Shown here one piece after another: positions 10,685-12,964 of a DNA stretch of 64,000 nt (position 1 is its first letter; the number at the start of each line of letters is the position of its first letter). Below the pieces are notes generated by a model that was not told the DNA's origin, did no database searches, and worked only from the letters and a program-made list of their open reading frames with translations. The translations under genes and the position numbers were made by a program. Source of the DNA: an uncultured Ferrovum sp. (GTDB lineage: Bacteria; Pseudomonadota; Gammaproteobacteria; Burkholderiales; Ferrovaceae); contig CAIVHB010000051.1 of assembly GCA_903905585.1 (NCBI GenBank), positions 8,856 through 72,855 on the forward strand, written 5' to 3'.

Positions 10685-12096
10685 AGGTTCGTAAATTTAC
10701 AGCTAAAACATCGCGCGATGCATTGCGCCAAGTTCGTGAAGAATTGGGCCCAGACGCAGTCATCATGGCTAACCGTATGGTGCGAGGAGGCGTTGAAATT
10801 ATGGCGGTCTCTGCAAAAGAGATGGCTCTGGCTGCACCCCGCACCCCTAAAATCGCGGAGCCCATTACAGCTCCCTTGGAAATGACTGAGGAAGATATTG
10901 TGCAAGAGGGGATCCGTGCATCGACTCCTGCAAATAGCGATGCACTTGAGGCCTTGGCCAATGAAGTGAAGCATTTGAGTGGAATGTTGAATCAAAGCGC
11001 GGCACGTCAAGCCAAACTTCAAGAACAAACCAAAAAAGCCAAAAAAGAAACAAGCTTGATCGCACAATCAGACATCACCGTCTCAGAGCAAGGTGCTTCA
11101 GATGCTGTCAATCGTTCTAAAGCATCCGTGGTTCCGGCTGCTGAGGAGTGGATGAAAAATATGATGGGTGAACTGCGCTCTATGCGTAATCTGATTGTTG
11201 ATCAAATGGGTGCAATCGCTATTAATGAGTCGATTCGAGTCCCTGCTGAAAAGAGTAGGGCGGCTAAAAAGCTCTCAGCTGCTGGTTTTAGCATGCCCCT
11301 TATTCGTAAAGTGACAACACGACTTCCAGATCGTGTCAGTGAGCAAGACGCACTTAACTTTGCGCGTAGTGCTTTGTCTAGCCAATTGAAAGTCGCAGGA
11401 AGCGAAGCAGAAATTTTAGATCAAGGGGGTGTGTTTGCCATTGTTGGCCCAACTGGTGCAGGCAAAACGACCACGGTCGCTAAGCTAGCCGCGCGTTTTG
11501 TTGTGCGTCATGGTGCTGAAAACTTAGCACTACTCACCACAGATGGTTACCGGATTGGCGGTCAAGAACAGCTTCGGATTTATGGAAAAATTTTAGGTGT
11601 AGCCGTGCATGCTGTTAAAGACGCAGAGGATCTTAAACGTACATTGGCGGAGTTAAAAAATCGCAAATTGATTCTGATTGATACTGTTGGATTATCGCAG
11701 CGTGATCAATCAGTTTTAGAGCAGTTAAGCCTATTCGAAAATTGTGGAACAGATGTAAAGCGATTGTTATTACTGAATGCCACCAGCCATGGTGATACCT
11801 TAAACGATGTTGTAAAAGCTTACCGTGGCAAAGGTTTGGCAGGTTGTATCATCAGCAAACTCGATGAGGCTGCTACTTTGGGTGCCGCTTTAGATGTCAC
11901 TATTCGAAATAGTTTGAAGCTTTTTTATGCGACTAACGGACAACGTGTTCCAGAAGATTTAATCTTGGCGAATGCCAAAGAGCTCGTGAAAATGGCTGTT
12001 GAGATGGCATCTGAAGATTCAGGTTATAGTGAGTGGGACGCCAGTTTGCTTTCTCAGGTTTCCGCTGTGGCGCAACGAGGGGTAGCACATGCCTGA
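10681..12096 (+). CDS. flhF: Flagellar placement SRP-type GTPase FlhF
   Basis: NG-domain motifs are present: GPTGAGKTTT, TTDGYRIGGQEQL, LIDTVGLSQRD and SKLDEA. A GGAGG Shine-Dalgarno sequence lies upstream, and the start overlaps the flhA stop. Confidence 0.92.
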   Translation: MKVRKFTAKTSRDALRQVREELGPDAVIMANRMVRGGVEIMAVSAKEMALAAPRTPKIAEPITAPLEMTEEDIVQEGIRASTPANSDALEALANEVKHLSGMLNQSAARQAKLQEQTKKAKKETSLIAQSDITVSEQGASDAVNRSKASVVPAAEEWMKNMMGELRSMRNLIVDQMGAIAINESIRVPAEKSRAAKKLSAAGFSMPLIRKVTTRLPDRVSEQDALNFARSALSSQLKVAGSEAEILDQGGVFAIVGPTGAGKTTTVAKLAARFVVRHGAENLALLTTDGYRIGGQEQLRIYGKILGVAVHAVKDAEDLKRTLAELKNRKLILIDTVGLSQRDQSVLEQLSLFENCGTDVKRLLLLNATSHGDTLNDVVKAYRGKGLAGCIISKLDEAATLGAALDVTIRNSLKLFYATNGQRVPEDLILANAKELVKMAVEMASEDSGYSEWDASLLSQVSAVAQRGVAHA

Positions 12097-12964
12097 TCAG
12101 TGGATTGACCAAGCAGAAGGTCTGCGCAAACTGTTGGTAAAAGCACCGCCTCAAATTGTGACGCTGTGCTCTGCAATGCCGGAACCAGGACGACCATGGG
12201 CTTTACTCAACCTTGCGGCGGCATTAAAACAAGCAGGTTCTGGGGTGCTCATCCTAGATGGTGCTGCTGGCCAAGCAGGAGGGTTGATGGCATGCCCCGT
12301 GCAGCCCATTCAATTCAAGAATATTCTGGAAGGAAATTGTTCTATTTCTCAGGCGATTTCCATGGCCCCTGAACAGATTCCTGTGATCGCTGCCCAATCT
12401 GGATTAGACGGGTTGGTTGAGGCTTTATCTGAAAACCATTCCTTTTCGCGACAATTAAAATTAGATTCAGGCACTACTGAAGTGTTACTGGTGAACACCC
12501 TCCCCAATGCCCATGGATTACAGTGTCCAGATGCGCTTCTAGGCCAGGAAATGGTGATTACCGTGAGGCCAGAAAGAAGCTCGGTTTCAGCAACCTATGA
12601 ATTGATTAAAAGCTTGTGTGAGCGTTCTTCACAGAGAACGTTTCGTTTGCTGATTTCAGGTAATCCGGACGTTCGCGAATCTCAGCGATTACACAAAGCC
12701 CTGTCTTCGGCTTTGGCTAGGACATTCAATGTCAATATGACTTTGTTAGGTGTCATGCCTTCAGACCGCAACTTACATCATGCCGCAAGCCAGGGTCGTG
12801 CTGTTGTAGCAAGTCATCCCAACACCTTTTCTGCGGCAAGTTTCCGCAAAATGGCCGATAGCCTGATACGATGTCGCACTGCGGGGTTGCCAAGATTAGG
12901 TGTTCCCACTTCATTGGTGCCGAAAATCAATACATCGAGCGCTATTTCTTTAGTAAGGGGCTGA
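12089..12964 (+). CDS. flhG: FlhG/FleN (MinD-family) homolog with degenerate ATPase motifs
   Basis: Position between flhF and fliA. The N-terminal DQAEGLR motif is present. The fold aligns with FleN, but the deviant Walker A GGKGGVGKT is replaced by SAMPEPGRP, LLDAD by ILDGA, and Walker B VVDT by LVNT. Confidence 0.8.
   Translation: MPDQWIDQAEGLRKLLVKAPPQIVTLCSAMPEPGRPWALLNLAAALKQAGSGVLILDGAAGQAGGLMACPVQPIQFKNILEGNCSISQAISMAPEQIPVIAAQSGLDGLVEALSENHSFSRQLKLDSGTTEVLLVNTLPNAHGLQCPDALLGQEMVITVRPERSSVSATYELIKSLCERSSQRTFRLLISGNPDVRESQRLHKALSSALARTFNVNMTLLGVMPSDRNLHHAASQGRAVVASHPNTFSAASFRKMADSLIRCRTAGLPRLGVPTSLVPKINTSSAISLVRG

Follow-up and report, generated by a model that had tools for sequence, protein, structure and literature searches.

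Can a bacterium control the number and placement of its flagella through an FlhG protein that has given up its ATP site? The question is raised by a locus of an uncultured Ferrovum sp., in a 64,000-nucleotide stretch of contig CAIVHB010000051.1 (assembly GCA_903905585.1) which is called the window below. At the flhG position of this window, between flhF and fliA, lies a gene whose product had been described in a first-pass annotation, made from the sequence alone, as a likely pseudo-ATPase. Our analysis finds that the gene is orthologous to flhG and encodes a MinD-like fold, that all nucleotide-site motifs and the membrane helix have been lost, that the gene is under purifying selection and that its FlhF-activating motif is conserved. 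The reading we favour, and consider probable, is that this true flhG orthologue of a Ferrovum-lineage betaproteobacterium has become an ATP-independent FlhG of MinD fold, which still limits FlhF as a GTPase activator or scaffold.

The canonical FlhG forms an ATP-dependent dimer which is bound to the membrane through a C-terminal helix (PMC7226244), and one review states that every functionally important MinD residue is conserved in FlhG. Its N-terminal DQAxxLR helix stimulates GTP hydrolysis by FlhF by means of a glutamine (PMC12826062), and in the experimentally studied FlhGs this helix places the glutamine in the FlhF active site, which leads to hydrolysis; the Q9A variant of Vibrio FlhG has lost FlhF activation in vitro. 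The catalytic mutant D60A of Vibrio FlhG is nearly wild type, and binding of FlhG to C-ring proteins has been reported in other species (PMC7226244). In the open-access papers searched, including a December 2025 review on the evolution of FlhF and FlhG, the work on flhF in Burkholderia and the description of the Ferrovum genome, we found no description of a natural FlhG lacking the ATP site or Walker A.

Nucleotide-site motifs and the FlhF-activating helix

The gene and the segments of its product that carry the argument are as follows (all on the plus strand; positions are those of the window).

12089 to 12964, +: degenerate flhG orthologue, ATG start, 291 amino acids (aa), MinD/ParA fold without nucleotide-binding motifs
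12107 to 12127, +: DQAEGLR, residues 7-13, motif of the FlhF-GTPase-activating "enhancer helix", intact, with a helix at residues 8-16 in the AlphaFold 2 (AF2) model
12167 to 12199, +: CSAMPEPGRPW, residues 27-37, former deviant Walker A, aligned without gaps to TSGKGGVGKTN
12251 to 12265, +: ILDGA, residues 55-59, former Walker A'/switch I, on LLDAD; D57 kept, catalytic Asp replaced by Ala59
12488 to 12499, +: LVNT, residues 134-137, former Walker B, on xxDT; Asp replaced by Asn136
12884 to 12961, +: C-terminal tail, residues 266-291, predicted disordered (predicted local distance difference test, pLDDT, below 50), no helix; terminal xRG conserved

The relationship to FlhG is clear from sequence comparison. 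A phmmer search of the PDB aligned residues 19-259 with P. aeruginosa FleN (8pb9/5j1j) at an E-value of about 1e-18, followed by G. thermodenitrificans FlhG and the MinDs. An hhalign comparison of the profile of 13 orthologues with one of 15 canonical FlhGs covered 261 columns with a probability of 100% and an E-value of 1.8e-42, and was ungapped at the P-loop. Both alignments place all three nucleotide-site segments identically, so that a misalignment of the P-loop is ruled out. They bear out what had been read from the sequence alone, namely the collinearity with FleN, the loss of both lysines of Walker A and the replacements ILDGA and LVNT. The position between flhF and fliA was likewise confirmed, both neighbours being named as FlhF and FliA by NCBIfam, and the coordinates given for DQAEGLR are exact.

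The damage to the site is extensive. In the former Walker A the signature Lys has become Met, the P-loop Lys has become Arg and the Mg-binding Thr has become Pro; three of the four glycines are gone, and the position of the phosphate-binding loop now holds two prolines, one glutamate and one tryptophan. At the Walker B aspartate, Asn stands in 12 of the 13 orthologues and His in the remaining one. Among the findings that the first-pass annotation had named as undoing its reading are a motif elsewhere in the protein and a frameshift masking it. Neither was found: a regular-expression scan of all 291 residues detected no GK[ST], KGG or Gx4GK, and a six-frame scan detected no P-loop in any reading frame of the gene. 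Among the Pfam and NCBIfam models none reaches its cut-off, the best being minD_arch with 51 bits (cut-off 202) and every Pfam E-value being at least 0.07; in particular, none of the curated P-loop families (Pfam CbiA/ParA/AAA_31, NCBIfam MinD) scores above its curated cut-off. The N-terminal motif stands at the other end of the scale: its D7, Q8, A9, G11, L12 and R13 show no variation among the 13 Ferrovum-type orthologues, nor among a diverse set of 40 FlhGs of beta type.

Fold and C-terminal tail

The AF2 model, built on 28 sequences, has a pLDDT of 82.5 and a predicted template modelling score (pTM) of 0.81, and shows a MinD-like alpha/beta core preceded by the N-terminal helix. A Foldseek search of the PDB with this model ranked FleN (5j1j, 7ejw, 5jvf, 8p53) and FlhG (4rz2/4rz3) on top with E-values of about 1e-15, followed by MinD, NifH and Soj. 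An alignment and a structure model had been proposed as checks on the absence of the P-loop; the alignments show that it is absent, and the model supports a MinD/ParA (SIMIBI) fold.

The C-terminus is altered as well. The canonical FlhGs of the set analysed end in a clear amphipathic helix, for example GIKGFINRFVGLF or NIKFFWKRL; a hydrophobic-moment scan detected no such membrane-targeting helix in the window protein or its orthologues. The same scan, asking for an amphipathic 11-mer in the tail, was applied to each Walker A class of the wider sample described below.

Canonical (A): 24 of 34 tails with an amphipathic 11-mer
GK[ST] kept without the signature Lys (B): 21 of 31
Glycine-rich loop kept without the P-loop Lys (C): 41 of 59
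Strongly degenerate, G-x-[ST] absent from the P-loop position: 4 of 32
Ferrovum-type: 0 of 14

All four helix-bearing exceptions in the strongly degenerate class carry glycine-rich loops, and the helix is also missing in a P-loop-less clade of Oxalobacteraceae type. As judged from these sequences, the P-loop and the membrane helix are lost together, which is the expectation if the ATP-dependent membrane cycle were abandoned as a unit.

Selection on the gene

A protein search returned 13 further proteins with about 43-89% identity to the window protein, all of them without Pfam matches; the orthologue alignment used here comprises 13 full-length sequences including the window's own, with one fragment besides. 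The degeneration proved to be common to these relatives, a point on which the first-pass annotation had advised a check. Every full-length Ferrovum-type sequence contains the pattern S-A-x-x-[ED]-x-G-R-P-W-A-[LV]-L-N-L-A-A-A-L, and G34, R35, P36 and W37 (GRPW) are invariant in 13 of 13 down to about 43% identity. Gene calling gave the identical protein on 14 contigs, which come from several sources. The ratio of nonsynonymous to synonymous substitution rates (dN/dS), measured against a locus with 89% protein identity, where dS is 0.59 and unsaturated, is low for the gene and its neighbours.

flhG-position gene: dN/dS 0.089
flhF: 0.076
flhB: 0.043
flhA: 0.029
fliA: 0.007

Within the clade the segments of the former nucleotide site are the best-conserved parts of the protein (conservation 0.86 for the former Walker A block, residues 24-46, and 0.88 for the former Walker B strand, against 0.68 for the entire protein), which indicates a site that has been remodelled and fixed and not one that has been eroded. 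Other elements conserved in the clade are AAGxxGG, the FRxMADSLIR of the last core helix (residues 255-263, nt 12851-12877) and the terminal Arg-Gly (290-291, nt 12956-12961). The roughly 25 residues between the last two are highly variable, and R290 is invariant. Together with GRPW these elements may mark a new interface.

The clade was assigned to Ferrovum metagenome-assembled genomes (MAGs) by genome matches. Metagenome or MAG assemblies are the source of the window's closest relatives, in which FlhG identity is 89% and 74% (L005 and L006 from JGI 3300009151 and 3300009154; L001 from the Ferrovum MAG Ki1-0-7m). The window has a GC content of about 48%, compared with 54% in the cultured F. 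myxofaciens, and thus probably represents a distinct Ferrovum-related lineage.

Distribution of degenerate FlhGs in Betaproteobacteria

A search with a hidden Markov model built from the orthologues gave 5587 relatives at E <= 0.001. The best 150 of these, joined by matches from earlier searches, made up a set of about 185 sequences that was classified by the state of Walker A; the query profile being itself degenerate, the sample is biased and the class fractions are no estimate of frequency among all FlhGs.

Canonical: 34 of about 185
Signature Lys lost, GK[ST] kept: 31 of about 185
Gly before the P-loop Lys kept, that Lys lost: 88 of about 185, of which about 36 are Ferrovum-type, near-identical cluster members included
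Not even this Gly present: 29 of about 185, mostly with no recognisable glycine-rich loop

DQAxGLR is kept in nearly all of them. Nitrosomonadales and Rhodocyclales (Sulfuricella, Nitrosospira, Thiobacillus, Dechloromonas, Azonexus, Accumulibacter) carry loops such as SGRRGVGKT, SGQQGAGKT and AGCEGVGRS, with DAD usually replaced, for example by DEN or DEH, and only 6 of 79 are canonical. An entirely different loop, LSxxPxxEKxA, characterises Oxalobacteraceae (Herbaspirillum, Massilia, Duganella, Janthinobacterium, Noviherbaspirillum), Polaromonas and Sulfuriferula, and the "MotR" proteins of Methylophilaceae and one Methylumidiphilus protein are of the same type. All 80 of the LSxxPxxEKxA loci are without GK[ST] and membrane helix, and in 79 of the 80 an flhF P-loop is found in the fetched flank, upstream sequence included.

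Among plasmids, a tblastn search with the window protein matched Aeromonas alone; with a beta-type FlhG as query, loci of Burkholderia, Cupriavidus and Ralstonia were recovered. The FlhG loop reads GGPVGVGCTS in Burkholderia glumae and AADAGAGATT in Cupriavidus metallidurans, and is deleted in Ralstonia solanacearum. The R. solanacearum protein at the flhG position of the megaplasmid (L169, 2222-2992; 256 aa, annotated as "MinD/ParA family protein") keeps DQADGLRR and has lost the P-loop and a segment that follows switch I. Between flhA and this gene no flhF coding sequence is listed in the plasmid gene table, which is incomplete.

The view that the Ferrovum gene is an FlhG counterpart with three motifs lost and DQAxxLR intact, in company with its orthologues, therefore stands; what was overstated in the first-pass annotation is that this is an unusual solution, since a degenerate Walker A combined with an intact DQAxxLR is widespread in Betaproteobacteria, as the 80 Oxalobacteraceae-type loci and the B. 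glumae, C. metallidurans and R. solanacearum proteins illustrate. Across the 40 beta-type FlhGs (mean identity 32%) variation is absent only from the six motif columns D, Q, A, G, L, R, from N41 and from one Pro. We infer from this pattern of conservation that the conserved function of the protein is contact with FlhF. When the loop columns are left out, a neighbour-joining tree shows the GRPW clade of Ferrovum and the Oxalobacteraceae-type clade as distinct groups, each monophyletic, with intermediates around them. The P-loop would accordingly have been lost completely, and independently, at least twice, a tentative reading because the tree carries no support values. The window protein appears as a lineage-specific extreme of a broad and apparently undescribed trend.

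Comparison with known systems

With the FlhG/FleN/YlxH/MotR proteins (4RZ2/4RZ3 of G. thermodenitrificans; 5J1J/5JVF of P. aeruginosa), which are its best matches in both sequence and structure, the window protein shares the position between flhF and fliA, the N-terminal DQAxxLR helix and a MinD/ParA fold collinear over about 260 residues. What sets it apart from them is the lack of a deviant Walker A, of the catalytic and the Walker B Asp, and of an amphipathic helix at the C-terminus for membrane targeting. By descent and position it is an FlhG, though one that has parted with these four marks of the family, and the canonical ATP-dependent cycle of dimerisation and membrane binding, judged by residues and tail, cannot run in it as described.

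The partly degenerate beta-type FlhGs (Sulfuricella, Nitrosospira, Thiobacillus, Dechloromonas/Azonexus, Accumulibacter, Gallionella, B. glumae, C. metallidurans) have the same locus, the DQAxGLRR motif and the bacterial class in common with it. Their signature Lys is usually gone, their P-loop Lys often (AGCEGVGRS, GGPVGVGCTS), and DAD is usually replaced; however, a glycine-rich loop and the Walker B Asp are still present in most, and about 70% keep the amphipathic tail "WP...FMQRLIQ", none of which is present in the window protein. Closer in kind are the P-loop-less FlhGs of Oxalobacteraceae, Methylophilaceae and Sulfuriferula (for example Herbaspirillum WP_322208899 and the Methyloradius palustris "MotR" WP_221763533) and the reduced R. 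solanacearum protein, which resemble it in an intact DQAxGLRR, the lack of a glycine-rich loop and of a membrane helix, and a location downstream of a P-loop-intact flhF. The P-loop-less group nevertheless has an unrelated loop, LSxxPxxEKxA, with a retained Lys, mostly keeps the Walker B Asp and forms a separate clade. MinD, the next-best structural match, has the same fold and architecture, but it lacks the DQAxxLR extension, keeps ATP site and membrane helix intact and belongs to a minCDE context, whereas the window protein has the extension, a degenerate site and a flagellar context.

Locus and neighbouring genes

The neighbours of the gene in the conserved block are listed here.

7305 to 10684, +: flhB and flhA, upstream of flhF, part of the conserved flhB-flhA-flhF-flhG-fliA block
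10681 to 12096, +: flhF, SRP-type partner GTPase (SRP, signal recognition particle), 471 aa; NCBIfam TIGR03499 257 bits (cut-off 174), Pfam SRP54 1.5e-33
12969 to 13697, +: fliA (sigma-28), downstream neighbour, NCBIfam NF005413 312 bits

The order flhB-flhA-flhF-X-fliA, with X the flhG-position gene, is found in the window and in five related loci (L001, L002, L003, L005, L006). The GTPase motifs of FlhF (GPTGAGKTTT, DTVG, SKLDE) are intact, and its P-loop was recovered in the six-frame scan. The length of FlhF is 624-662 aa in GC-rich Ferrovum MAGs (L002, 1818-3806; L003, 4134-6008) and 468-471 aa in the window, L001 and L005, a spread which indicates that its N-terminal (B-domain) region is highly variable within the clade.

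The window holds a complete flagellar and chemotaxis region, running from motA' through motB, two cheV-like genes, cheY, cheZ, cheA, flhB, flhA, flhF and X to fliA, after which flgN-flgM-flgA follow on the opposite strand and then flgB-L, fliR...fliE, fliS/fliT, flagellin and fliD. A scan of the window ORFs brought up no gene for a regulator of the FleQ/FlrA type or for FlhDC. For this reason, and because the mechanism requires the ATP dimer, anti-activation of FleQ in the manner of FleN was considered and rejected.

Several other features of the window were recorded. Between motB and cheY there are two neighbouring genes (1942-2898 and 2898-3854, plus strand) for CheV-like proteins of 318 aa, in each of which a CheW domain precedes a receiver domain. 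At 39137-40783 on the minus strand a 124-aa protein consists of an FlhB C-terminal-like domain alone (TIGR00789, under cut-off); it adjoins fliT/fliS and is flanked by ORFs of 140 and 296 aa without family match. The hook-associated and cap proteins encoded at 23433-27207 and 44240-46474 are long (FlgK 649 aa, FlgL 602 aa, FliD 744 aa), and FliD has about 60 additional N-terminal residues and a long C-terminal part beyond the model match. At 54379-62051 two genes for cyanophycin synthetases of 736 and 864 aa stand in tandem, with a cyanophycin-associated ABC transporter, transcribed divergently, and a DUF1854 protein beside them.

Alternative explanations and the favoured reading

That the gene is a decaying pseudogene, or that the motifs were lost to an assembly or sequencing artefact, can be regarded as effectively refuted. 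The failure of every curated family model to pass its threshold is what one would expect under that view, but the low dN/dS, the intact frame and invariant GRPW in orthologues down to about 43% identity, the confident AF2 fold, the recurrence of the identical protein on 14 contigs and the lack of a P-loop in alternative frames all speak against it. Scarcely more credible is the proposal that the gene is no flhG orthologue at all and that a different MinD/ParA paralogue has displaced flhG, for which one could cite the identity of only 22-26% to canonical FlhG/FleN. A displacing paralogue would have had to take over the conserved flhF-X-fliA position and carry the FlhG-specific DQAxxLR extension; moreover, whether sequence or structure is searched, FleN and FlhG outrank MinD, Soj and NifH, and a continuum of intermediate beta-type FlhGs leads up to the canonical forms.

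Some ParA/MinD relatives, such as the cyanobacterial McdA, are ATPases despite having no signature lysine. A nucleotide might in the same way still be bound by the window protein at a non-canonical site, with Arg35 standing in for the P-loop Lys or a Lys supplied in trans, which would make the protein a slow switch and not a pseudo-ATPase. The invariance of the retained G34, R35 and D57, the conservation of G-x-x-P-x-D (221-226) in all classes and the high conservation of the former site in place of erosion agree with such a switch. We nonetheless hold it to be unlikely, given two Pro, a Glu and a Trp in the phosphate loop, Pro in place of the Mg-binding Ser/Thr, Asn in Walker B and Ala at the catalytic position, the loss also of the membrane helix, by which the ATP state is read out, and the absence of any curated P-loop family model above noise. 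An ATP-independent adaptor has a somewhat better, though still small, chance of being the main role: the protein would deliver or tether FliM/FliN, or modulate a transcription factor as FleN does FleQ, and its N-terminal motif would mainly bind FlhF. The strong conservation of the MinD-like body, some of whose surfaces (GRPW, AAGxxGG, FRxMADSLIR, terminal RG) are invariant in a lineage-specific way, fits this role, as do the binding of C-ring proteins by FlhG elsewhere (PMC7226244) and the debate about the in vivo importance of the glutamine in Vibrio. On the other hand, DQAxGLR, its catalytic Gln included, exceeds every other feature of the degenerate FlhGs in conservation, and no regulator of FleQ/FlrA or FlhDC type turned up in the window ORFs scanned. 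The adaptor role and activation of the FlhF GTPase are not mutually exclusive.

The favoured reading remains that of an FlhG which would no longer bind or hydrolyse ATP. Its retained DQAxxLR helix would limit how active FlhF is and thereby how many flagella are made and where, without an ATP-dependent cycle of dimerisation and membrane binding, and the MinD-like body would serve as a fixed scaffold. We infer from the conserved motif and the lost site and tail that the protein has no ATP binding, acts as a GTPase-activating protein (GAP) on FlhF and works in a monomeric or cytosolic mode. Its dosage may be set by co-expression with flhF: the start of the flhG-position ORF overlaps the flhF stop by 8 nt (ATGCCTGA), which would tie the level of FlhG to that of FlhF. 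The idea of the first-pass annotation that the protein acts only as an FlhF activator or scaffold fits these data, and the pseudo-ATPase reading is strengthened because the membrane helix is lost too and because the altered site is under strong purifying selection instead of drifting.

Several points weigh against the reading. Arg35 and Asp57 are still present, and G-x-x-P-x-D, a segment which we take to lie near the nucleotide in MinD-type proteins, is kept in every aligned FlhG-like protein, canonical or degenerate, so that atypical nucleotide binding is conceivable. The strong conservation of GRPW and FRxMADSLIR suggests an additional interaction. Walker A mutants of Vibrio alginolyticus FlhG are non-functional (PMC7226244), and an ATP-free FlhG would accordingly need compensating changes. 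The phenotype of Vibrio Q9A has mostly been explained by a lower protein level, the in vivo weight of GAP activity being debated even in model species. Lastly, the genome was covered over the 64 kb of the window, and a second, intact flhG or minD could lie in the rest of it.

Implications for FlhG biology

In current models and reviews FlhG is a MinD-type ATPase for which ATP binding is essential. A conserved and selected FlhG with neither ATP site nor membrane anchor would mean that control over flagellar number and placement does not require that cycle, and would indicate the contact between DQAxxLR and FlhF as the core that the system cannot do without. Genetically tractable genera (Burkholderia, Ralstonia, Cupriavidus, Herbaspirillum) show the same trend, which makes the contribution of the ATPase cycle directly testable. 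The protein would also be a natural example of a P-loop NTPase turned pseudo-enzyme, with its former active site still under selection.

A wider proposition, which we regard as possible though doubtful, is that the FlhG of the whole Betaproteobacteria is a MinD-fold radiation that has repeatedly abandoned the ATPase cycle, with at least two complete and independent P-loop losses, each accompanied by loss of the membrane helix, and with the FlhF-activating helix alone invariant; in Ferrovum, GRPW would fill the former pocket and lock one conformation, giving a constitutive, dosage-controlled inhibitor of FlhF. If that were true, the "FlhF GTPase / FlhG ATPase" switch of the reviews would not apply to a bacterial class that includes Burkholderia, Ralstonia and Herbaspirillum.

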